From Escherichia coli (lineage in GTDB: Bacteria > Pseudomonadota > Gammaproteobacteria > Enterobacterales > Enterobacteriaceae), in the NCBI RefSeq assembly GCF_002854065.1, contig NZ_CP024147.1: DNA of 64,000 nucleotides, one strand, 5' to 3'. The position numbers and the translations under genes were made by a program. Every line of letters starts with the position of its first letter. Positions within the stretch are counted from its first letter, which is position 1. The notes beneath the pieces were generated by a model. It ran no database searches. It had not been told where the DNA came from and was given only the letters and a program-made list of their open reading frames with translations. Positions 8,980 to 32,861 of this stretch are shown here, piece after piece.

Positions 8980-9136
8980 TGCGCACCCTTATAAATTTAA
9001 TGACTTTCTAATAGCCATCATATTTATAACGGACGTGAAAGGAGTAACGGTTTTATATACCGTTTGGTGATTTGGAAGTTGAAAAGGGAATAAGACGAAA
9101 TCCTCCCCACACATGCAGGGAGGAAACAGAGGTGAA

Positions 9137-9928
9137 TCAGATACCGACGCTGACCGTCTCCGGCAGTGTGCTGCCGCCATCAATCACATTCTGTGTACCG
9201 GTTAAATAGCTGGATTCATCCGATGCAAGGAAGGCCGCCAGTTCGCCGACTTCCAGCGGATCGGCGAGGCGACGCAGCGGGATTGCTTTTGCCATATCAG
9301 TCAGCACCGACTCTGGATCTTCCGGGTTCGACTGGCGGGCAATGCTTTCCGCCATTGGCGTGCGGACGTATCCCGGGCAGATGGCGTTAACGCGAATACC
9401 GGATTGCGCGTACTCCACCGCCAGCGATTTTGTCAGGCCAACAATCGCCGCTTTCGTTAAGGCGTACGCCGTTTCACCCGGATCGGCCACCATATCACCA
9501 GTGACTGAAGACATCATCACAATGCGACCATCTTTGCGGGCAATCATCTCCGGCAGCACCGCCTTCGTGACGTTCCATACGCCTTTAATATTGATGTCAA
9601 TATGGAAATCGCGATCGTCATCGCTCATATCGAGGAAACTGCCCAGACGACAAACGCCTGCGTTATTCACCAGGATATCAATGCGCCCTTCTTTTTCCTT
9701 CGCGCGTTTGATAGCTGCGGCTACCGACGCCGGGTCACGCACATCGGCGACAACCGCCGTACAGCGATGACCACGACCACACAGTTCGTCCGCCAGCTTT
9801 TCGATCTCAGGGGAGATATCCAGCAAGATTAGGTTTGCGCCATGACGCGCAAAAGTTCTGGCAATTCCTTCGCCAATTCCCTGCAATGCGCCCGTAATCA
9901 GTGCTGTCTTGCCCGTGAGTTTACCCAT
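9137..9928 (-). CDS. ucpA: Short-chain dehydrogenase/reductase UcpA
   Basis: Rossmann motif TGALQGIGEG; start refined to internal ATG (MGKLTGKTALITG) at 9926-9928. Confidence 0.85.
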   Translation of the reverse strand: MGKLTGKTALITGALQGIGEGIARTFARHGANLILLDISPEIEKLADELCGRGHRCTAVVADVRDPASVAAAIKRAKEKEGRIDILVNNAGVCRLGSFLDMSDDDRDFHIDINIKGVWNVTKAVLPEMIARKDGRIVMMSSVTGDMVADPGETAYALTKAAIVGLTKSLAVEYAQSGIRVNAICPGYVRTPMAESIARQSNPEDPESVLTDMAKAIPLRRLADPLEVGELAAFLASDESSYLTGTQNVIDGGSTLPETVSVGI

Positions 9929-22437: not shown

Positions 22438-23799
22438 TCAGAAGAACAGTGACGGATCGCCCGCCCGTTTGATCAAGCGACCGTTTGCCATAATGCCCAT
22501 GCTTTCCAGCCAGCGTTCAAACTCCGGTGACGGGCGCAGGTTGAGTAACTGACGCACAGTGGCAGTGTCGTGGAAGGCGGTGGTCTGGTAGTTGAGCATG
22601 ATGTCATCGCCCAACGGCATCCCCATGATGTAATTGCAGCCTGCGGTGGCGAGCAGGATCATCAGGTTTTCGTTGAGGTTCTGGTCAGCGTCAGCGTGGT
22701 TGGTGTAACAGCAGTCACAGCCCATAGAGATGCCGCTCAGCTTGCCCATAAAGTGATCTTCTAAGCCCGCACGGATAATCTGGCGGTCGTTGTAGAGATA
22801 CTCCGGCCCAATAAAGCCGACCACGGTGTTGACGATAAACGGATCGTAATGACGCGCCAGCCCATAGTTACGTGCTTCCATCGTCACCTGGTCTGCGCCG
22901 AAGTTAGCGCCAGCGGATAGCGCTGAACCTTGTCCGGTTTCGAAGTAGAGGCAGTTTTCCCCGGCGATACGGTTGAACTCTGCACCCACTGCGCGCGCTT
23001 CGTCGAGCATCGCCAGTTCCACGCCAAACTCTTTCAGCCCTTTTTCACTGCCACAGATACTCTGGAAAATCAGCCCGCCTGGTGCGCCACGACGAATCGC
23101 TTCGATCTGGGTGGTGACGTGCGCCAGTACGCAGCCCTGAGTTGGGATGTTGAATTTGTCGATCACGCCATAGATGGTGTCCAGCACGCGGCTTAAGTTT
23201 TCCACGTCGTCAGTCACCGGGTTAACGCCGATCACCGCATCGCCCACCCCGAAGGAAAGCCCTTCGTAGATTTGCGCGGCGATACTTTGCACGTCGTCAC
23301 GGGTGTCATTTGGCTGCAAACGGGCGCTGAAGGTGCCCGGAATACCGATGGTGGTATTGGCCTTTTTGATTACCGGCATTTTCTTCGCGCCGTAGATCAG
23401 GTCCGCGTTGGAGCAAATCTTCGCTATCGCCGCGACCACTTCCGAGGTCAGCCCTTTGCGGGTAAAGGTAATGTCGTCCACGCTGGTTTCATCGCTCAGC
23501 ACATACTCACGCAGTTCGCTGATGCTCCAGTTTTTAATCTGGTTGTAGGCCGTTTCGTTAACATCGTCCTGAATCAGCCGCGTCACGCAGTCATCTTCAT
23601 AGGCAATCACCGGATTATTGCGGATGTCCGCTACGGTCATTTCCGACAACACCTGCTTTGCCGCCACGCGCTCCTGTGAACTTGCCGCTGCAACGCCTGC
23701 CAGCACATCCCCCGAACGCAGTTCGTTGGCTTTAGCCAGCACCTCTTTTACATCCTTAAACTGATATACATTGCCGAACAATGTGGTCTTTAGTTTCAT
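22438..23799 (-). CDS. eutB: Ethanolamine ammonia-lyase large subunit
   Basis: 453-aa ORF of the EutB family; first eut gene retained in this window. Confidence 0.9.
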   Translation of the reverse strand: MKLKTTLFGNVYQFKDVKEVLAKANELRSGDVLAGVAAASSQERVAAKQVLSEMTVADIRNNPVIAYEDDCVTRLIQDDVNETAYNQIKNWSISELREYVLSDETSVDDITFTRKGLTSEVVAAIAKICSNADLIYGAKKMPVIKKANTTIGIPGTFSARLQPNDTRDDVQSIAAQIYEGLSFGVGDAVIGVNPVTDDVENLSRVLDTIYGVIDKFNIPTQGCVLAHVTTQIEAIRRGAPGGLIFQSICGSEKGLKEFGVELAMLDEARAVGAEFNRIAGENCLYFETGQGSALSAGANFGADQVTMEARNYGLARHYDPFIVNTVVGFIGPEYLYNDRQIIRAGLEDHFMGKLSGISMGCDCCYTNHADADQNLNENLMILLATAGCNYIMGMPLGDDIMLNYQTTAFHDTATVRQLLNLRPSPEFERWLESMGIMANGRLIKRAGDPSLFF

Positions 23800-23986
23800 A
23801 AGTCGTTCCCTCAGGAAGAAGTGATGAGTAACATTTCTTCCAGCATTCGAACAATTCTATTTCATCGTTAGCCCTTGTCCTGTAAGGTAATTGTCTTAAC
23901 ACGCCCGTTATTCATCATGCCGAACGCAACCGAACGCGCCGGATACATGATCGGGTTTATCCAGTCGTTATGTCGAGGTATCCGGT

Positions 23987-25192
23987 TTGAGCAAGACACC
24001 ACTCACAGCAAAGGCCATCGCAGCCGCGCAGCCAAAAGACAAGCCCTATAAACTCACCGATTCACTGACGCCAGGACTGTTTTTGCTGGTGCATCCCAAC
24101 GGCAGCAAATACTGGCGATTCAGGTATTGGTTGAATAAACGAGAGTTTTTGCAGGCCATTGGTGTTTACCCGCTAATCACACTCAAAGAAGCACGCAGAC
24201 GCGCCACAGAGAGCCGATCTCTGATTGCTAATGGAATTAATCCAGTGGAAGAAGCACGCAAGGAAAAAGCCATTGATGCGCTCAACATGGCGGCAGGTTT
24301 TAAGACGGTAGCGGAGGACTGGCTGGCTACCAGGGTCAGCGGGTGGTCAGAGTCCTACACGAAACAGGTTAGATCGGCACTGGAAAAAGATGTTTACCCC
24401 GTGCTGGGGAAGCGGTCAATTGTCGATATAACGGCCCGTGACGTGCTGGAATTGCTTCAGAAGAAAGAGCGTACCGCACCGGAACAAGCCAGGAAGCTAC
24501 GCCAGCGTATCGGGGAGATCTTCAAATTTGCCGTTATCACCGAACTGGTGGCAAGAAATCCGGTTGCAGATCTGAACACAGCACTAAAAGCCCGCCGTCC
24601 GGGCCACAACGCATGGCTGCAAATTAACGAAATTCAGGCGTTCTATGAAGCACTTGAGAGAGCCGGGAGCGTCCAGATTCAGACGGCAATACGTTTGCTC
24701 ATATTGAGCGCTCTAAGGACGGTGGAACTGCGTAAAATGCGCTGGGAATGGGTTAACCTGGAAGACGCGATCATCACCCTACCCGCTGAAGTCATGAAGG
24801 CCCGTCGCCCGCATGTGGTCCCGCTATCACGGCAGGCGGTAGAGCTATTGCAGGACCAGTTTACTCGCACCGGATACAGCGCTTTCGTCTTCCCTGGTCG
24901 ATTCATGGATAAGCCCTTGTCTGCCAGCGCGATACTGAAAGCCCTGGAGCGTATCGGATACAAGTCGATAGCCACAGCACACGGCTGGCGTACAACGTTC
25001 AGCACGACGCTTAACGAGTCCGGCAGGTACTCACCAGACTGGATTGAAATCCAATTGGCCCACGTCCCGAAGGGTGTACGCGGTGTATATAACCAGGCGG
25101 CCTATCTCAAACAGCGCCGTCAAATGCTTCAGGACTACGCCGACGCCATTGATTCAATACTGGCTGGTGAAGGTAATCCGCTGGAACCGTGA
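23987..25192 (+). CDS. intZ: P4-type tyrosine integrase of a prophage remnant (TTG start)
   Basis: 401-aa ORF with N-terminal P4-integrase arm motif (KLTDSLTPGLFLLVHPNGSKYWRFRYW) and C-terminal tyrosine-recombinase core; K-12 has intZ next to eutB. Confidence 0.8.
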   Translation: MSKTPLTAKAIAAAQPKDKPYKLTDSLTPGLFLLVHPNGSKYWRFRYWLNKREFLQAIGVYPLITLKEARRRATESRSLIANGINPVEEARKEKAIDALNMAAGFKTVAEDWLATRVSGWSESYTKQVRSALEKDVYPVLGKRSIVDITARDVLELLQKKERTAPEQARKLRQRIGEIFKFAVITELVARNPVADLNTALKARRPGHNAWLQINEIQAFYEALERAGSVQIQTAIRLLILSALRTVELRKMRWEWVNLEDAIITLPAEVMKARRPHVVPLSRQAVELLQDQFTRTGYSAFVFPGRFMDKPLSASAILKALERIGYKSIATAHGWRTTFSTTLNESGRYSPDWIEIQLAHVPKGVRGVYNQAAYLKQRRQMLQDYADAIDSILAGEGNPLEP

Positions 25193-25198
25193 ACTATA

Positions 25199-25224
25199 AG
25201 GCCGGATTCGTCCGGCTTTTCTTT
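25199..25224 (+). terminator. Rho-independent terminator after the integrase gene
   Basis: Stem gccgga / tccggc with ttcg loop followed by ttttcttt. Confidence 0.5.
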
Positions 25225-25418
25225 CGCTAATTATTCCACTATTCCAATTAAGTGGAATAAATTATTCAATATCAAAAACTTACATCAATATTGCAACAAT
25301 AAAAACGGTGGCTTATGATCAGATCATGATTTTCGGTATGTGAACAGCAAAAACAAGAAGCCCGGAAAGGCGGCAACCAATCCGGGCGATATGGGAAAAG
25401 AGATTAGGAGGTTTCCCC

Positions 25419-26186
25419 ATGCGTAATAGTTTAGCAGTTCGCTTTAGCTTGCAGCAAGGCGAAGAATTATCACAGGAATATCAATTCATCAAATACGAAG
25501 AAGCGCCGGAACAGGTGCAAATAGCTTTTGATGATCAGCACTACGGCAACACTATCCGCTACGACGGTAAAAAATGGTTTCTCAATCCGGTAACAAATGC
25601 CATTCACGTATGTCAAATCATTACGCCAGTAAATAACAGCGCGGATAACGATTCGGCTATTGACGCTGAACTGGTGACAGAACCACTACCGCCACCGCCG
25701 CCAGTACAAGAAAGCGATGTAAAACCCGACGCCATCGATCTGACAGCAGAAGCCAGAGAGCGCAAACAACCGAAGCCGGAACAACCGCAAGCCAAGGATA
25801 ACAAACAGTGGCACGGTAACACGGCGTATCTGAATACGTTTGCTTGTCATCTTCATGAAGTGCTACCACAGGCCATCTATAGCACATGGTGCGACAAACA
25901 AACGGCGGCACACTTCCACCTGCTTTACGCGCTTTGCTACCTGGCAAGCTACGAAAACAAAGATGAAGGTATCGAGCTTGGCGAGGTGTTATATGGTGCT
26001 GAAAAGATCACAAAGGGCGGCGTAGTACCTGGTTTCCATATGGCCCGATCAACGTTCGATATCAAGATTAACGAGCTTGAACAGTGGGGATTAATCAAGG
26101 TAACACGAGGTAAGAAACGTAAGGACGGGCAAGGCAACTTGCCGAACAGTATCAAACTGAACTTTAAGCCGTACAGTTTAAAATAA
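25419..26186 (+). CDS. Hypothetical prophage protein, possibly a winged-helix replication-initiator-like protein
   Basis: 255-aa ORF behind a strong SD (aggagg); proline/acidic linker then a basic C-terminal segment (ELEQWGLIKVTRGKKRKDG) resembling winged-helix initiators; weak inference. Confidence 0.55.
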   Translation: MRNSLAVRFSLQQGEELSQEYQFIKYEEAPEQVQIAFDDQHYGNTIRYDGKKWFLNPVTNAIHVCQIITPVNNSADNDSAIDAELVTEPLPPPPPVQESDVKPDAIDLTAEARERKQPKPEQPQAKDNKQWHGNTAYLNTFACHLHEVLPQAIYSTWCDKQTAAHFHLLYALCYLASYENKDEGIELGEVLYGAEKITKGGVVPGFHMARSTFDIKINELEQWGLIKVTRGKKRKDGQGNLPNSIKLNFKPYSLK

Positions 26187-26194
26187 TCACACTA

Positions 26195-26220
26195 GGCGGG
26201 CAATGTTCCCGCCTTTTCTT
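26195..26220 (+). terminator. Rho-independent terminator after the 255-aa ORF
   Basis: Stem ggcggg / cccgcc with 7-nt loop followed by ttttctt. Confidence 0.5.
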
Positions 26221-26243
26221 TGCCTCAATCCTATAAAATTCAC

Positions 26244-26282
26244 ATCCCGAAAATCGGTATCTGGGTATCCCGAAAATCGGTA
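26244..26282. repeat. Two perfect 16-bp direct repeats ATCCCGAAAATCGGTA with 23-bp period
   Basis: Copies at 26244-26259 and 26267-26282, immediately followed by an AT-rich tract. Confidence 0.7.
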
Positions 26283-27668
26283 AGTAATAATAAGTATTAT
26301 CCTTAAAGGTAAAAACCATATAAGTAAGATCTATCTCTTCAAGAATGTATATATTCACTACGTTCATATATACATGAGAAGTTTCCCTTTCATGCAGTCA
26401 AAACTACATTCATCAGCATCGCTTTCTGCGCTCTCCTTCCCAGCAAGCTGGAAAGGCCCATTCACTCACGCACAACCTGCAAACCAGACCAACATACCAT
26501 CATGGCGATTCGTTCATGGGTAGCGCGGGTATATCTCAAAGGGTGATTTCTTCTTGGTGGACCTTCGGAAGACTTCGAGCAATCGCCAGCTCAAAAGACG
26601 GTCTGGCAGTGATGGTTATCATCGACAGCATTGAGCGCTACCGCGCCAACTTACAGCAGCAGGATAACTACCGAAGGAAAACCCACGCCGAAAGGGATTG
26701 ACTCACTGCAAAGCCAATGGGTTTTATCAGCGTATACAGACCAGACAGGAAACAGCAGCAAAGCAGCGTATAGCCAGGTGCAGACAGTACCATCACACAA
26801 CGCACAGCAGGCTGAGGTGAACACTCAAACAGGTTTATCCCCGCAGCCGACCAACGCAAACCATCCTGACCGTGCCAAATTCGAACGGAATGGTGCCTGT
26901 AACGCGATGAACACATATAACCGCTTACTTGCTTACCTGAAAACTTCACGTCGCCACAGAGCGATTTAGACGCATTATAATTGATGCGATTTCATTAAAT
27001 TTTCACCAGACACCGGAACAACGCCGATTAATCCAGGAATGGATTCATCGACATGCGCCGCTTTCCCCGCAGAACAGTCTCGCCTGAATAGTCTCACCAA
27101 CCAGATTTCAGATTGTCCAATCAGGCACGTCTCATTAAACGACAGAATGCGGCCTACAACGCCATCGCTGCCGATCTCGTTTGAGCAAGGTGCTGAGACT
27201 GAATGACGGACGCCCACTCCTCAGAGCTGAGGAATCGCCACACAGAACGCTGAGATCTGATATTACCGCCGCACCATTCCACGCCAGACGAATCAATCTA
27301 ATCACACCTGAGCAAATGCATTGCCAAAAATTAAGGCCGTCAGAATGCGTTATATTGCGTTTAAACGGCATCTAATTTTAATTAGTTTTGATGTGGTGAT
27401 TGCAGGCAAAAAAAATCCCGCCGGAGAGAGCGGGGAAGTGAAATCAATCGTTGTAGTTATAGATCACATTTTGAGTAAGGGTTACCAGCCCTTGAGTAAT
27501 ATTATCCCTGTATTACGTGAGATGCGCAATTATTTTTTGCTAATTAAAAGTTTTGTAAACATTACAGAATATCCCCTTTCCCTATATGGTAAAAGATGTG
27601 AAACAGGGACATGAGGAATATAATATTAAGTATCAACAGTAATGTTGGTCTTTAATTTCATTCAGGGC

Positions 27669-27710
27669 GCGGTGAGGGTTTTCCCATATTTTTCCTCACC
27701 GCTACTTTTT
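27669..27710 (+). terminator. Terminator/attenuator-like hairpin in the leader of the AlpA-like gene
   Basis: Perfect 9-bp stem gcggtgagg (27669-27677) / cctcaccgc (27694-27702), 16-nt loop, T5 run at 27706-27710. Confidence 0.4.
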
Positions 27711-27721
27711 GAGGTGAGAAC

Positions 27722-27913
27722 ATGAATGATAGCGAATTAATGACGGTGAGCGAGGTAGCCGCTTTATTCGGCGTTACCCGACGCACTATATTCCGCTGGC
27801 TGAACAAGATTAAAGGTTGGCCCGTTCCGGTTACTCCGGTCGGTGCACGAATTAAGTTTATCCGATCTGAGATTTTGGAATTCTATAAAAACAAAGGCGC
27901 TCGCCACCAATGA
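27722..27913 (+). CDS. AlpA/excisionase-family helix-turn-helix prophage regulator
   Basis: 63-aa ORF MNDSELMTVSEVAALFGVTRRTIFRWLNK; HTH typical of prophage AlpA/Xis-type regulators; SD gaggtga 6 nt upstream. Confidence 0.7.
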   Translation: MNDSELMTVSEVAALFGVTRRTIFRWLNKIKGWPVPVTPVGARIKFIRSEILEFYKNKGARHQ

Positions 27914-27989
27914 AAACAGCTACTGAGATTATCAAATAACCTATTGATTTAATAAGCTAGCTACCGCAATTTCTGAAGGAATAGGCAGC

Positions 27990-28316
27990 ATGAAAATCAA
28001 AGCAAACACAATTAAAGAAATAACATCAATCAAAGTAAAAGGAGCAGATGCCATGCATTCATTAGACAGTTATTTTCAGCGCACGACAGCCCCTAAATCA
28101 GCCGCCCAGGAACGCCGTGAGGAATTCCAGGAAAAAGTGATGCGTTCTGCTGATTATATTGCGGACAAGTTCGTGGAAACGGTTCGGCCACTTGTTGATG
28201 AAGTAGCTGATAAACTTCAGTCTGAAATGCCGGAAGACATGGAAGGCACTGCAAAGGCGCGACTCCTTTTTGAATTAAGTCGTCGTTTCGGCGTGTCAAT
28301 AAGCACTTTTAAATAA
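27990..28316 (+). CDS. Hypothetical prophage protein (108 aa; may start at internal Met)
   Basis: ORF in co-directional tight cassette; no recognisable motif. Confidence 0.45.
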   Translation: MKIKANTIKEITSIKVKGADAMHSLDSYFQRTTAPKSAAQERREEFQEKVMRSADYIADKFVETVRPLVDEVADKLQSEMPEDMEGTAKARLLFELSRRFGVSISTFK

Positions 28317-28333
28317 TCGGAGGAGAAAAGACA

Positions 28334-28876
28334 ATGGACGCATTTGATGTACTGACAAACAAAGGCGATGAACTGGTAGCACAGCGTGATAAAACCGCCA
28401 ACGAAGGGGAACGCGCACTGTTAAATAAGCAGATTAAAGCGATCCGTATGGCCCAGTTTAAATTAATCAGCAATGAAGTTATCGAAATAATTAAACCGCA
28501 GATCCCACAAATCGTTGCTGACGCTATTAAAGCCGCCGGACTGGAGAAACGCATTGCCGGGCTGAAAACGAACGCAGAGAAAATGGAGATGCACAAACAG
28601 AGCGGTGCTCCGACTCCGGATGAGTACTTCTCACCGGATGCTGAGTTTATGGCGCAGGTTGAGGAACGTCTGGGTAGCTGTCTCACCGAGGAACAGCGTC
28701 GCTATTTTGATGGAGTGGATAGTTCGGCAGGTATTGACCTGAACTCGTGTTTCGGTCGTGAAATTGAGCATTTTGATGCCGCCCCGTCTATGCCGGAGCC
28801 AGAACCAGAAATGGCCGCCGATCCTGAAGCTGAGCAACGGAAACGCGTATTCAATGCGATAGGGATTCGGTACTGA
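28334..28876 (+). CDS. Hypothetical prophage protein (180 aa) with acidic C-terminal tail
   Basis: Strong SD (ggagga) 7 nt upstream; predicted helical N-terminal half and PEPEPE-containing acidic tail; no recognisable motif. Confidence 0.55.
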   Translation: MDAFDVLTNKGDELVAQRDKTANEGERALLNKQIKAIRMAQFKLISNEVIEIIKPQIPQIVADAIKAAGLEKRIAGLKTNAEKMEMHKQSGAPTPDEYFSPDAEFMAQVEERLGSCLTEEQRRYFDGVDSSAGIDLNSCFGREIEHFDAAPSMPEPEPEMAADPEAEQRKRVFNAIGIRY

Positions 28877-28927
28877 TCGGATAAAAGAAAGCCGGGAATT
28901 ACCCCGGCTGACTTAACAATGTGACCA

Positions 28928-29302
28928 ATGAACAAATCGGACAAGACAAACAGGATAAGCAGTCTCGAAACAATGTTCGGGAACTATATTAGCACAAGTC
29001 CGGAGAAAATCATCATGTTGGCACTACGCATCATGCAGGGCATCGCTAAGACCCTCGCAGAACATGTCTTAGACCTGAAACATTCGCCACTGAGCAAACA
29101 GGCCATGAAGCGCCAAACGCTTCGTCTGTGGGCTGAATATTCGCTTGGAACTATCAATAAAATCATCGACATGAAATCGGGGCCGAGCAACCAGAGCGCG
29201 GAGGAAATGGAGTTCATCAGGCGTTTAATTCTCATTCGCAGAGATATTCATAGCCAGTTACACAGCGTGGGAATCGATATTAATGATGGGACGGGCGATT
29301 AA
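28928..29302 (+). CDS. Hypothetical prophage protein (124 aa)
   Basis: ORF in same cassette; basic, helical; no recognisable motif. Confidence 0.5.
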   Translation: MNKSDKTNRISSLETMFGNYISTSPEKIIMLALRIMQGIAKTLAEHVLDLKHSPLSKQAMKRQTLRLWAEYSLGTINKIIDMKSGPSNQSAEEMEFIRRLILIRRDIHSQLHSVGIDINDGTGD

Positions 29303-29340
29303 TTTTCGGACAAGTACAATGCGCGCGCGAGGAGCTGAAC

Positions 29341-29571
29341 ATGAAGCAAGATATTGCAGACAGGCTGGAGATACTCGAAGGCCAGCGGGCAGAAGCGAAA
29401 CAACTACGTAAGCAGGCCAGAAGAGCGCACAGGAACTACGAAGCAGAATCACTGACCGCTTTCATCAACTTCACAAACCGTTGCATCCAGGAGTGTTACA
29501 GGGAGGATGCAGAAAACTGGCTGGATTCATTGCCAGAACAGACTCTGCATGAACTGAACGGCGACCAGTAA
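29341..29571 (+). CDS. Hypothetical prophage protein (76 aa, coiled-coil-like)
   Basis: SD gaggag 7 nt upstream of ATG; Arg/Glu/Gln-rich helical sequence. Confidence 0.45.
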   Translation: MKQDIADRLEILEGQRAEAKQLRKQARRAHRNYEAESLTAFINFTNRCIQECYREDAENWLDSLPEQTLHELNGDQ

Positions 29572-29859
29572 ATAAATCCAGTACGTTTCCCGCAGTGCGC
29601 ATAACGTACATTATGTGAAAAACGATATGGATGTATATCAGTATTGATTTCATTGAGAAAACTGGGTTTTCAGTGGCACAGACAAAGAAGCATAGCTGAT
29701 ACAGCTTTATAAGCCATTGATTCTATTAAGTGATGTTTTTTGTGATTGGTTGAAGCAAACCAAAACACGATGCCACTGAAGCGTTAATAAACTGTTTCAA
29801 TGTGAAATTATTAGAGTAAAGAACAATTTGGAGGGTCCGCAAACGCGGATAACAATATC

Positions 29860-32040
29860 ATGAGTGGAAATCTCGGGACCATATACTACGAGGTCGATGC
29901 CCGCACTGGGAAACTTCTTATCGCGCAACAGCAGGCGGAAGAGGCGTTCGATCGCATTGAACGAGGAGCGCGGAAGGCTGATAGCGGCGTCAAAAAGTTA
30001 AATACGCAGATGACTAAAACATCAGCCGCAGTCAAAACCAACCTTTCCCCGGCAATCCGTAACGCATCATACCAGATCGCAGACCTTGCCACTCAATTGC
30101 AGATGGGCGGTAATGCGCTTCAGGCGTTCGCTGTGCAGGGTGCGCAGTTATTAGCTGGCTTTGGCACGATGGGCGCGGTAGCTGGCGCGGTGCTGGCTAT
30201 CGCTGGCGCTATGGGTGGAAGCCTGGCACAAGGCGCTGATAGTGCAGCCGGATCGGTTGAGTATCTGGACAAGGCGATCACCAAACTGAACGAGGTCATA
30301 GCTGTAAATGAACAGGGCGTGACGGTGATGAGTGATAGTTACGCCAGACTTTCTAAGGTTAACGCTGAAGTAGCGAAACAGATGCGGAACATGGCTGAAA
30401 TTCAGGCAATTGCAGCACTGCGTGACCTGAAAGAACAGGCAAGCCAGGCACAGGGGGAAATGTCGTCATTCTGGCGCAGCTTGCAGGGTGGTAAAGCTGA
30501 CGCAGCAGCAGCAGCACAGGCACTTGATGATCTTGGAATCACAACCAACGACTACAAAGAGGCGATAGCCATACTGAACGCCAATCAGCCGGATACACAG
30601 GCGCAAATGGCAACGCTAGCCAAATCCGTGATGTATGTTGGAGAGCAATATGATCTGACCAACCAGCAAGCATACGAATTTATACGCGCACTAAATAAGG
30701 CCGCGACAACGAAAACGCCGGAAGCCATGCAGGAGCTATCTGGCTTCATGCAGGTTTTGCTTCAGGATACCGAAAACGGTAACGAGGCATTCCGTGAACT
30801 GGCTATCAAATTCGTCGATGCACAAACCAAAGGCGCAATGTTGGAGGACCAACTAAACCGACTGAAAGGCGCTATTAGTGACGCAGCCACAGAAGCCAGA
30901 AACGCAAACTTTACCACTATGCTCAACACCGTCGCCGCACGCCTGGCAACCATTGAGCAAGGTTGGGAGGCAGGCGTTAGGATGCAGATGAAAGCCCAGG
31001 GCTACACTGAAGAGCAGATCGATGAATATGTGAACATGGAAACGGCGTACCGTGATGCAAAAGCCGCTTTGGACGAGAAGAACAAGGCCGACCGTGAAGC
31101 TATTGCGCTATCCAAACGCCAGGCCGCAGAAGCAGCCCGCAAGGCAAAACAGGAAGAAGCTGAAGCACAACGCAAGGCCAAACAGTTAGCCGCGCAGAAG
31201 GAGCAGGCAGGACGCTTTACGCAGCAAGTAATGACGGAATACCTGACGACCGTAGATCCGGCAACAGGCAAGGCGTTTAACCCTGCCGCACAAGTAGAAA
31301 TGCAGGAGCAGCAGAAGAAAGCGGCGCTGGATAAATACAGACAGTTGGGCGTCCTGGATGAACAGCAGTACCAGAACACGCTAACCGCCATCCAGAAAAC
31401 CGCGTCAATGCGCCGCCAGCAAATCATCAAAGACGAGGCCGACACGTTATTCAACAATCAGCAACAGTTGATCGGCACATTTGGCGATTTCTTCGGTGAA
31501 CTGTCTGGAGTCATAGCAGACGGTGCAGGTGAGCAAAACGCGGCATATCAAGCGCTATTTGCTGTGCAGAAGGGTTTTGTATTGGCATCAGCAGCTTTAA
31601 GCCTTCAGAAAGCGCTTGCTGAGGCAAACGCCTTGCCTTTCCCGGCTAATCTTCCGGCCTATGCGCAAGCTATGTCAGCAGGTACGCAGATCATTTCAGC
31701 TATTCGTGGAATAGCTTTCGGTGGCGGACGCTACAACGGCGGCGCGGTTGGTGCTGGCAACCTGTACCGCGTGGGTGAACACGGTAAGCCTGAGATATTC
31801 AAGGCGAACAATGGCAGCCAGTACATGATCCCAGGTGATAACGGTCGCGTGATAAGTAATCGTGACATTGGCGGCGGTGGCGGCGTAACAATCAACAGCC
31901 CGATCACCATTAACACTACGAATGGCTTCAGTGATGAAGACTCAAGGCGTCTTGAGGAAGCGATGAAGCGCGTAGCTATGGGCGTTTGCAGGCAGGAGTC
32001 AACCAGACCGGGAGGAATGTTAGCCCCGCGCCGTCGTTAA
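29860..32040 (+). CDS. Phage tail tape-measure-like protein
   Basis: 726-aa Ala/Gln-rich mostly helical ORF with glycine-rich hydrophobic N-terminal segment, long coiled-coil region (AEAARKAKQEEAEAQRKAKQLAAQKEQ) and C-terminal Gly-rich motif GGGRYNGGAVGAGNLYRVGEHG resembling the lambda gpH C-terminus as recalled. Confidence 0.65.
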   Translation: MSGNLGTIYYEVDARTGKLLIAQQQAEEAFDRIERGARKADSGVKKLNTQMTKTSAAVKTNLSPAIRNASYQIADLATQLQMGGNALQAFAVQGAQLLAGFGTMGAVAGAVLAIAGAMGGSLAQGADSAAGSVEYLDKAITKLNEVIAVNEQGVTVMSDSYARLSKVNAEVAKQMRNMAEIQAIAALRDLKEQASQAQGEMSSFWRSLQGGKADAAAAAQALDDLGITTNDYKEAIAILNANQPDTQAQMATLAKSVMYVGEQYDLTNQQAYEFIRALNKAATTKTPEAMQELSGFMQVLLQDTENGNEAFRELAIKFVDAQTKGAMLEDQLNRLKGAISDAATEARNANFTTMLNTVAARLATIEQGWEAGVRMQMKAQGYTEEQIDEYVNMETAYRDAKAALDEKNKADREAIALSKRQAAEAARKAKQEEAEAQRKAKQLAAQKEQAGRFTQQVMTEYLTTVDPATGKAFNPAAQVEMQEQQKKAALDKYRQLGVLDEQQYQNTLTAIQKTASMRRQQIIKDEADTLFNNQQQLIGTFGDFFGELSGVIADGAGEQNAAYQALFAVQKGFVLASAALSLQKALAEANALPFPANLPAYAQAMSAGTQIISAIRGIAFGGGRYNGGAVGAGNLYRVGEHGKPEIFKANNGSQYMIPGDNGRVISNRDIGGGGGVTINSPITINTTNGFSDEDSRRLEEAMKRVAMGVCRQESTRPGGMLAPRRR

Positions 32041-32163
32041 CCAAATCCCACGCCAGGGGAACAGACTGGCGGACCTTCAAAGACGGTCGCACACCGTGTT
32101 TGACATAATTTATTGTTTTTTGCTTGCTCTTATTATTGCAGCCGTTAGGGTAATGACTCCAAC

Positions 32164-32667
32164 TTATTGATAGTGTTTTATGTTCAGATAATGCCCGATG
32201 ACTTTGTCATGCAGCTCCACCGATTTTGAGAACGACAGCGACTTCCGTCCCAGCCGTGCCAGGTGCTGCCTCAGATTCAGGTTATGCCGCTCAATTCGCT
32301 GCGTATATCGCTTGCTGATTACGTGCAGCTTTCCCTTCAGGCGGGATTCATACAGCGGCCAGCCATCCGTCATCCATATCACCACGTCAAAGGGTGACAG
32401 CAGGCTCATAAGACGCCCCAGCGTCGCCATAGTGCGTTCACCGAATACGTGCGCAACAACCGTCTTCCGGAGACTGTCATACGCGTAAAACAGCCAGCGC
32501 TGGCGCGATTTAGCCCCGACGTATCCCCACTGTTCGTCCATTTCCGCGCAGACGATGACGTCACTGCCCGGCTGTATGCGCGAGGTTACCGACTGCGGCC
32601 TGAGTTTTTTAAATGGCGGAAAATCGTGTTGAGGCCAACGCCCATAATGCGGGCGGTTGCCCGGCAT
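32164..32667 (-). CDS. insB: IS1 InsB reading frame (expressed as InsAB transposase by -1 frameshift)
   Basis: 167-aa ORF overlapping the insA 3-prime end in the -1 frame, classic IS1 organisation. Confidence 0.85.
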
Positions 32668-32861
32668 CCAACGCCATTCATGGCCATATCAATGATTTTC
32701 TGGTGCGTACCGGGTTGAGAAGCGGTGTAAGTGAACTGCAGTTGCCATGTTTTACGGCAGTGAGAGCAGAGATAGCGCTGATGTCCGGCAGTGCTTTTGC
32801 CGTTACGCACCACCCCGTCAGTAGCTGAACAGGAGGGACAGCTGATAGAAACAGAAGCCAC
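32586..32861 (-). CDS. insA: IS1 InsA protein
   Basis: 91-aa [46 protein letters not shown] with zinc-finger cysteines. Confidence 0.9.

Follow-up and report, generated by a model that had tools for sequence, protein, structure and literature searches.

What kind of site is the palindrome that separates an integrase gene from its downstream neighbor in an island of Escherichia coli? The window analyzed here, a 64,000-nt stretch of contig NZ_CP024147.1, contains the integrase gene intZ followed by a gene for a 255-aa protein, and in the spacer between them lies a 30-bp inverted repeat (25231-25260) that the original prediction regarded as an operator or a recombination-directionality site. A comparison of related loci indicates that the conserved unit is an array of four TATTCCA-type sites, of which the 10-bp palindrome is one lineage's version. 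Very probably, to judge from its context and distribution, the array belongs to the transcription control of the downstream gene, as a protein-binding control element, and not to recombination directionality.

The region reads ...cgctaaTTATTCCACTattccaattaAGTGGAATAAattattcaatatc..., and the inverted repeat is exact: a repeat finder returns TTATTCCACT (25231-25240) and AGTGGAATAA (25251-25260) as 10-nt arms, 100% complementary, with a 10-nt gap. As described in the original prediction, the gap (ATTCCAATTA) holds a further ATTCCA. The palindrome is located 12 bp past the intZ terminator, before the next gene. Two components had been overlooked, namely a second, abutting palindrome formed by copies 2 and 3 of the repeat (25240-25249/25250-25259, 9/10 matches) and a fourth copy, TTATTCAA, at 25262-25269. 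Altogether, four 8/9-mers of the form (A)TTATTCCA occupy positions 25231-25269, two of them direct, one inverted and one direct; the first two follow each other at an 8-bp period, the inverted copy stands 6 bp farther on, and the last direct copy abuts it.

25231-25238, + strand: array copy 1, TTATTCCA (9-mer ATTATTCCA from 25230); left palindrome arm; identical in 6/6 array-bearing lineages.
25239-25246, + strand: array copy 2, CTATTCCA, in tandem with copy 1 at an 8-bp period; all other E. coli lineages begin this copy with T.
25253-25260, - strand: array copy 3, TGGAATAA, inverted; right palindrome arm; 96% conserved, TAGAATAA in the EC6/B4103 lineage.
25262-25269, + strand: array copy 4, TTATTCAA, with one mismatch to the motif; together with copy 3 it reads TGGAATAA-A-TTATTCAA.

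The perfect form of copy 4, ATTATTCCA, is found in ETEC1731 (locus L009) and in the viral contig L147. In purely statistical terms, the palindrome stands out only mildly: perfect 10-bp inverted repeats whose spacer is at most 20 appear in 0.4% of mononucleotide shuffles of the 226-bp spacer, and about 1.7 such positions are expected in the 64-kb window, where 25 are found (11 loci, mostly terminators). The exact 10-mer arm has no other occurrence in the window, and three of its nine TATTCCA heptamers fall within these 28 bp. The palindrome does not have the form of an intrinsic terminator, as only 3/10 pairs of its stem are GC and AUUAUUCAAU follows; the true terminator is located at 25198-25224. 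A search of Rfam at the site returned no match.

Of 5,426 complete E. coli genomes, about 400 carry a single homolog of the spacer. Nine representatives were aligned, six from the eut site (window, K-12, ET881, ETEC1731, NRZ96606 and F5505) and three from ychJ (EC6, ET76 and B4103). Across six distinct lineages, the identity to the window amounts to 100%, 90%, 96% and 94% for copies 1 to 4; it is lower in the spacer that separates copies 2 and 3 (75%), in the post-terminator linker (70%) and at positions 25283-25290 (56%). Within the array, the window departs from all five other lineages only at 25239, where it has C in place of T. This C is specific to the window's lineage, to which L001 and L012 also belong, and lengthens the arms from 8 bp to 10; elsewhere the arms measure 8 bp, or 7/8 in the EC6/B4103 lineage. 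Because the perfect 10/10 arms hinge on this lineage-specific base, we regard them as incidental and the repeated core as the feature. In related islands, where a search for the palindrome had been suggested as a check, the four-copy array is conserved across the array-bearing lineages, and the perfect 10-bp form is restricted to the window's lineage. The K-12 array reads TTATTCCA TTATTCCA attaag TGGAATAA a TTATTCAA, all four copies are perfect in ETEC1731, and NRZ96606 combines three tandem ATTATTCCA copies with an inverted one. The gap between copies 2 and 3 keeps a length of 6-7 bp, and its sequence is unrelated between lineages.

The array lies within a longer conserved cassette that leads into the downstream gene:

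25198-25224, + strand: intZ terminator, stem GCCGGA-TTCG-TCCGGC (25201-25206/25211-25216), then TTTTCTTT at 25217-25224.
25270-25282, + strand: predicted integration host factor (IHF) site, TATCAAAAACTTA, an exact match to the consensus WATCAANNNNTTR, abutting the array.
25291-25319, + strand: predicted sigma-70-like promoter, TTGCAA-17-TATGAT, presumably that of the 255-aa gene.
25360-25387, + strand: leader hairpin GCCCGGA...TCCGGGC, directly 5' of the ribosome-binding site.
25419-26186, + strand: 255-aa gene, encoding an N-terminal beta domain, a disordered linker and a C-terminal winged helix; distant homolog of K-12 YffL.

The terminator, whose stem is 92% conserved in the six lineages, forms the left edge of the cassette. 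The IHF match is kept exactly in 4/6 array-bearing lineages (window, K-12, ETEC1731 and NRZ96606), and every variant retains the TTGCAA-like hexamer. This -35-like hexamer lies 22 bp downstream of the array, which overlaps neither promoter hexamer; if the promoter is placed at 25291-25319, the array would span about -95 to -57. For the leader hairpin, four of eight predicted pairs show two-sided, pair-preserving changes (stem variants GCCCGGA/TCCGGGC, GCCCCCGG/CCGGGGGC and CCCTGG/CCAGGG), and since no U-run follows, it is not a terminator. In K-12, the cassette is 92% identical over 97 bp within flanking DNA that cannot be aligned; about 100 bp of unrelated DNA separate the intZ stop codon from the hairpin, which is still joined to the array. 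Hairpin, array, IHF consensus and TTGCAA hexamer behave as a module. The operator part of the original prediction gains partial support from this arrangement, in which the copies are conserved, the spacers vary, and the promoter-like hexamer follows at a short distance.

The IHF consensus has seven exact matches in the window against 2.1 expected; four of the seven lie in the island or at its IS1 boundary (25270, 27937, 29710, and 32160 at the IS1 end), and the three intergenic ones of the island follow the array, follow alpA and precede the tape-measure gene, respectively. Right after the array, the E. coli cassette also has two ATCAA pentamers 12 bp apart.

In every array variant, the array is situated 5' of a gene of the HTH_36 family and of the conserved TTGCAA hexamer. 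The structure model of the 255-aa protein has a pLDDT (predicted local distance difference test) of 65, and a fold search yields only generic winged-helix matches; the Pfam domain HTH_36 is detected in four of its relatives. The identity to K-12 YffL is 26-27%. The annotated ATG of K-12 yffL (L002 9090; 9090-9215) falls inside the conserved non-coding cassette and overlaps the hexamer (TTTGCAA), and translation from this start would cross the leader hairpin. The yffL annotation is probably too long; an ATG after AAGGAGAATTT, about 110 bp downstream, would fit the relatives better. The gene is transcribed in K-12 (PMC5811629).

Is the array a peculiarity of these islands? A blastn search with 69 nt against 50,697 phage records retrieved 302 records, 279 of which are from phages of Klebsiella (249), Escherichia (14), Salmonella (12) and Enterobacter (4); among the matches listed, those in enterobacterial phages are mostly in non-coding DNA. 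The same query against a plasmid collection three times larger returned scattered unrelated taxa only. With the whole 228-bp spacer, nothing was found in phages, and the plasmids yielded one Klebsiella pneumoniae plasmid with a K-12-like yffL piece, the rest being noise. We then described the layout by the pattern TATTCCA-N1-2-TATTCCA-N4-20-GGAATA and scanned 2.9 million viral contigs, of which 67 match, compared with 12 for a composition-matched scrambled pattern (5.6x); about 50 of the 67 are 40-53 kb long with a GC content of 0.42-0.54. The exact array pattern proved too strict and had no match in the viral contigs. The simpler TTATTCCA-N6/7-TGGAATAA gave more than 120 matches, which we attribute to chance, as the contigs concerned have a mean GC content of 36% and extra copies are lacking.

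Phages of the T1-like, Jersey-like and Seuratvirus groups have the TATTCCA layout in their control regions. Examples are ATTATTCCAATTATTCCA-N13-TAGGAATAAATTATTCAA in FSL SP-031 (Cornellvirus), CTATTCCACTATTCCAAATTGGTGGAATAA...AGGAATAG in the Klebsiella phage VAC2 (Webervirus), where the string CTATTCCACTATTCCAA of the E. coli array recurs unchanged, TTATTCCATTATTCCA...TGGAATAA plus a second cluster in VogelGryff (Seuratvirus), and TTATTCCA-N15-TGGAATAAATGGAATA in Bas72. The viral contig L147, which is among those found by the pattern, repeats the entire E. coli layout, with a terminator hairpin and then TATTCCAGTTATTCCAAGTATCAGGAATAAATTATTCCA. Among 49 distinct arrays from phages, the sites follow (T/c)TATTCC(A/t); 42 arrays have a tandem period of 9 bp and 7 one of 8 bp, and the gap from TATTCC to GGAATA is 8-9 bp in 22 and 16-17 bp in 24. 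Two phage genomes, each scanned in full, have the array at one locus only, with no enrichment of the heptamer at other places. The array fills about 75 bp between two divergent sigma-70 promoters in Jersey-like phages, and in T1-like phages it stands between divergent gene clusters, upstream of an extended -10 promoter. Judged by the surrounding promoters and genes, this is the position of a switch operator.

The arrays of T1-like phages (L139 115-230; L135 1400-1500) are flanked by AATCA(C/A) or its complement TGATT, in at least five copies about 10-12 bp apart. FSL SP-031 has, in addition, an isolated TGGAATAATTTATTC palindrome (L138 26594-26620), paired as in copies 3 and 4, which directly adjoins a -35 hexamer of perfect TTGACA sequence in front of the coat-protein operon.

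Not all related islands possess the array. In the F5505-type islands, present in 72 E. coli genomes with one copy each, it is replaced by a palindrome of about 65 bp, CTGGTATAAAAGGTTAACAGG...CCTGTTATCCTTTTATACAG (L004 9068-9165), with the terminator and the leader kept. This alternative module contains GGTATA-like hexamers at an 8-9 bp period; compared with phage records, it gives nothing beyond noise, in scattered unrelated taxa. The alignment indicates that either of two palindromic modules, interchangeable with each other, occupies this position.

What could the array do at this position? From its anatomy, conservation and distribution, we infer that a protein binds it, that the promoter is affected, and to which class the binder belongs. 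Our preferred reading, to which we give slightly better than even credence, is that the array is a cooperative site cluster for a DNA-binding factor that sets the promoter at 25291-25319, possibly with the assistance of IHF. The cassette would end the transcription of the integrase gene and start, under control, that of the island's next gene, which encodes the 255-aa winged-helix protein. A small DNA-binding protein would dock cooperatively, as dimers or as a short filament, at about -95 to -57, possibly assisted by IHF bending at 25270-25282, and would activate or repress the promoter, thus setting the expression of the gene that follows the integrase. The binder is probably not encoded beside the array. 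Since unrelated enterobacterial siphoviruses have the same site in the same arrangement with similar spacings, it may be either a host protein common to the Enterobacteriaceae or a small regulator of phage origin that evolves fast; with a phage regulator, the array might enable the island to sense an infection by phage. A wider hypothesis is tentative, and we would sooner doubt than accept it: the TATTCCA arrays might be a hitherto unrecognized regulatory link between E. coli satellites or cryptic prophages (including CPZ-55 of K-12) and at least three enterobacterial siphovirus groups that are unrelated to each other, with one factor docking on all of them, be it a host protein of the Enterobacteriaceae enlisted by phages for their switch regions or a fast-evolving pan-phage regulator, and the island might time its first post-integrase gene to infection.

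Several observations weigh against the preferred reading. The 72 genomes without the array keep the same Int, the same AlpA and a nearly identical downstream protein, so the array must be dispensable or interchangeable. The conservation within E. coli could largely reflect recent shared ancestry and mosaic recombination and not selection, as Int is also 90-93% identical. The predicted promoter matches the consensus at only 9/12 positions. On the phage side, the single matches of the 69-nt search are weak (E = 0.04-6), the distance from array to promoter varies among the phage groups, and no DNA-binding protein detectable by BLAST is common to the phage groups, or to phages and island: a BLASTP comparison of Sin4 with FSL SP-031 finds in common only a tail-completion protein, an endolysin and HNH endonucleases, the island proteins give only weak AlpA and HNH matches at the phage array loci, and clustering of the open reading frames (ORFs) around 62 arrays produced no family that links phage groups.

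More challenging is the question of which protein, if any, of the island reads the array. Only Int, the YffL family and a YffM-like small protein are common to all array-bearing islands. The integrase, the AlpA-like protein and the 255-aa protein had been named in the original prediction as binders; by an indirect test, the co-variation of protein and array, none of the three appears to qualify. The two further genes concerned are:

23987-25192, + strand: intZ, P4-type tyrosine integrase of 401 aa, according to the RefSeq annotation of strain CUWW06.
27722-27913, + strand: gene of an AlpA-like HTH_17 protein.

If Int, AlpA or another recombination directionality factor (RDF) bound here to steer excision, the array would be an accessory site of recombination, which we consider very unlikely. 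It does adjoin the integrase gene in the eut-site islands, an AlpA-like gene is at hand, and tandem 8-9-bp repeats of mixed orientation resemble the arrays of Xis, Cox and Vis, but neither a location in the att region nor tracking of a cognate RDF was found. The attL of the window is located between eutB and intZ; an arm site of IntZ was rejected, as the array lies 1,244 bp past the intZ start codon, beyond the gene and about 1.3 kb from attL. TTATTCCA, sought at attL and attR of the complete K-12 element, is absent, and CCGGATAC is repeated at such places instead, as an inverted pair upstream of the intZ start (23939-23946 on the + strand, 23978-23985 on the - strand) and as a tandem pair at the attR of K-12 CPZ-55 (L002 14242-14265). 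These repeats are likely IntZ arm-type sites that bracket the int promoter and are distinct from the array. In the ychJ islands, the array is not beside the integrase gene; it is found about 1.5 kb from attR behind another gene, which in B4103 encodes 222 aa, is not an integrase gene and stands at the island's far end. The whole genomes of Sin4 and FSL SP-031, both of which bear the array, have no annotated integrase. As for AlpA, identical proteins occur in L012, with an array identical to that of the window, and in F5505/L004, where the array is absent; conversely, EC6 and B4103 (ychJ) share one array variant, and their AlpA proteins are 22-55% identical to that of the window. Given the distance from attL, the lack of the motif at the attachment sites and the lack of an integrase neighbor at ychJ, the recombination-directionality part of the original prediction is not supported. 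An auto-operator or set of iterons, at which the 255-aa protein would bind repeats upstream of its own gene, seems unlikely, even though iteron-plasmid Rep proteins and phage repressors do exactly this, and the array stands in a promoter region, always immediately 5' of this gene family. The C-terminal winged helix and the HTH_36 domain of relatives would suit such a role, and direct and inverted repeats next to an IHF consensus are reminiscent of the control regions of rep genes. Yet array and DNA-binding domain do not co-vary: the window, K-12 and EC6 share the array, but their proteins have about 25% identity, with differences through the presumed recognition helix, whereas ETEC1731, with four perfect copies, and F5505, with none, have identical C-terminal halves. 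Moreover, the genes downstream of the phage arrays are unrelated.

An origin of replication, at which the repeats would serve as iterons for an initiator of the helper phage or the host once the island is induced, is quite unlikely. The island yielded no primase, helicase or Rep protein and might then borrow one; the Sin4 array is situated in a 640-bp non-coding region with a long AT-rich stretch, and the clusters of VogelGryff in a 1.2-kb non-coding region upstream of a primase operon. The Jersey-like array, on the other hand, lies between promoters in the structural-gene region, far from replication genes, and the genome of mEp013, the best helper candidate by tape-measure and Xis-like similarity, is without the array. 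Repeats and an adjacent winged-helix gene are present as at iteron origins, but the two do not co-vary, and the 226-bp spacer has no distinct AT-rich unwinding element. A DnaA box (TTWTNCACA) was rejected: TTATTCCAC has one extra base, and all other E. coli lineages read CAT in place of its CAC. Could the palindrome have no function at all, as a chance AT-rich sequence kept through recent divergence? The number of such repeats expected in the window, the genomes without array and the restriction of the perfect arms to one lineage would agree with this, but the conserved cores amid varying spacers, copy numbers that shift by whole units, and a layout that recurs in three or more unrelated phage groups, 5.6 times as often as the scrambled control, make it highly improbable. 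Extremely improbable, finally, is an RNA element, that is, a hairpin at the 3' end of read-through intZ mRNA or a short antisense RNA, acting on stability or termination. The predicted fold has a 10-bp stem, a 108-nt segment reaches z = -5.0 with the terminator contributing, and a promoter-like TTGATG-16-AATAAT on the minus strand points into the palindrome. However, the stem is AT-rich without a U-run, the G-to-A change in copy 3 of EC6/B4103 breaks a pair and is not compensated, the direct copies 2 and 4 are equally conserved and not explained by a hairpin, and the minus-strand -35 is not conserved.

The host island (23800-32861) resembles a small phage satellite with an integrase, an AlpA-like protein, a few small genes and its own tape-measure protein. 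It is inserted between eutB, which ends at 23799, and the deleted eutA, the site that is occupied by the cryptic prophage CPZ-55 in K-12; relatives are integrated at eutB/eutA and at ychJ. Gene annotation follows the RefSeq strain CUWW06, which is 100% identical to the window over the 2.6 kb tested. All island genes are on the + strand, in the order intZ, 255-aa gene, a stretch without long ORFs, AlpA-like gene, four small genes and a tape-measure homolog (726 aa; phrog_1538, E = 7e-103). IntZ is 90-93% identical to the other eut-site IntZ proteins and 93% identical to that of K-12. The stretch between the 255-aa gene and alpA (26187-27721, about 1.5 kb) has no ORF of more than 112 aa; since the relatives L007 and L009 annotate a pseudogene with internal stops at the corresponding place, it is probably a decayed gene. 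An IS1 copy (32164-32861) cuts the island short inside or just after the tape-measure gene, and maeB (32989 onward) comes next, from which it follows that eutA and the eut genes up to maeB have been deleted, exactly as in CUWW06. Capsid, terminase and replication genes were not found in the island, and an IntZ-anchored scan of genome contigs yielded two unrelated loci only. The 3' end of the tape-measure gene (31716-32033) has up to 76% DNA identity to temperate mEpimmI coliphages (mEp013, mEp010 and others) and to temperate siphoviruses of Salmonella and Klebsiella; a 78-aa protein of the B4103 island (L013 13927-14163) is 79% identical to the Xis-like mEp013_03. On these similarities, the phages named are candidates for the helper. 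A literature search returned no description of such a satellite type, and islands of this kind appear to be undescribed.

The palindrome alone would be an ordinary operator candidate; what is unexpected is that E. coli islands and unrelated phages share the array. If one protein did read all of these arrays, there would be a common control point for early or switch promoters of phages and for the activation of satellites. K-12 itself carries the site in its intZ-yffL spacer, so that such a protein should be easy to fish out. The sequence of the array also offers a simple signature by which such control regions, as well as related satellite-like islands, can be sought.

How does the array compare with known systems? 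The closest relative is the intZ-yffL spacer of K-12 itself, at the same eutB/eutA site and with terminator hairpin, four-copy array and IHF-like site in the 97-bp segment described above. K-12 CPZ-55 differs in having T at the equivalent of 25239, so that its best palindrome consists of copies 2 and 3, and in the rest of the island, which is unlike that of the window with counterparts only for YffL (27%) and YffM (35%). This spacer is bound in vitro by the nucleoid protein Dan (PMC2887951). The GTTNATT motif of Dan, however, is absent from the array. An FNR chromatin immunoprecipitation peak labelled yffL was also rejected, as its predicted site is inside yffL and not at the array; the sequence of this site recurs in the ET881 row of the alignment. 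Literature searches on yffL, intZ and CPZ-55 found no published work on these repeats, and a search with the motif string found primers only. In a comparison by eye with known E. coli site consensuses, none of DnaA, ARG box, Lrp, Fis, RcsAB, NarL, HipB, sigma-54, sigma-E and extended -10 fits; the ARG box and the HipB operator TATCC-N8-GGATA are among those that miss by one base of spacing or of half-site length.

In terms of architecture, repeat-array operators on which small proteins bind cooperatively include the metboxes of MetJ, the heptads of the omega repressor, the Cox boxes of P2 and the Xis sites of lambda. They share with the array sites of 7-9 bp that abut or nearly abut, direct and inverted orientations and a variable copy number, but their motifs are unrelated, and no ribbon-helix-helix, Cox or Xis-type protein is tied to the array. 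The divergent-promoter switch regions of lambda (OR) and P2 (Pe/Pc) are comparable to the Jersey-like phage array between its two divergent sigma-70 promoters; in the island, by contrast, the left side holds a terminator and not a divergent promoter, and the sites spare the -35 and -10 hexamers. PeSL, a mobile cassette of early promoter and stem-loop in T4-type phages, is similar as a short hairpin-promoter cassette conserved at module boundaries among variable flanking genes. It differs in that the order here is hairpin, site array and promoter and that other phage groups are concerned.

The (GGTATA)3 operator of NanR has hexamers at an 8-9 bp period that are bound cooperatively by three dimers; binding requires at least two adjacent repeats, and the sites lie downstream of the RNA polymerase site (PMC8012715). 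The array likewise consists of packed hexamers at an 8-9 bp period, and its GGAATA is one base away from GGTATA. It departs from the NanR operator in that GGAATA is the hexamer in every copy, that the orientations are mixed, that it is positioned upstream of the promoter, and that the phage examples are mostly from Klebsiella phages. Hence, NanR would be the closest documented architecture, by analogy and not by membership.

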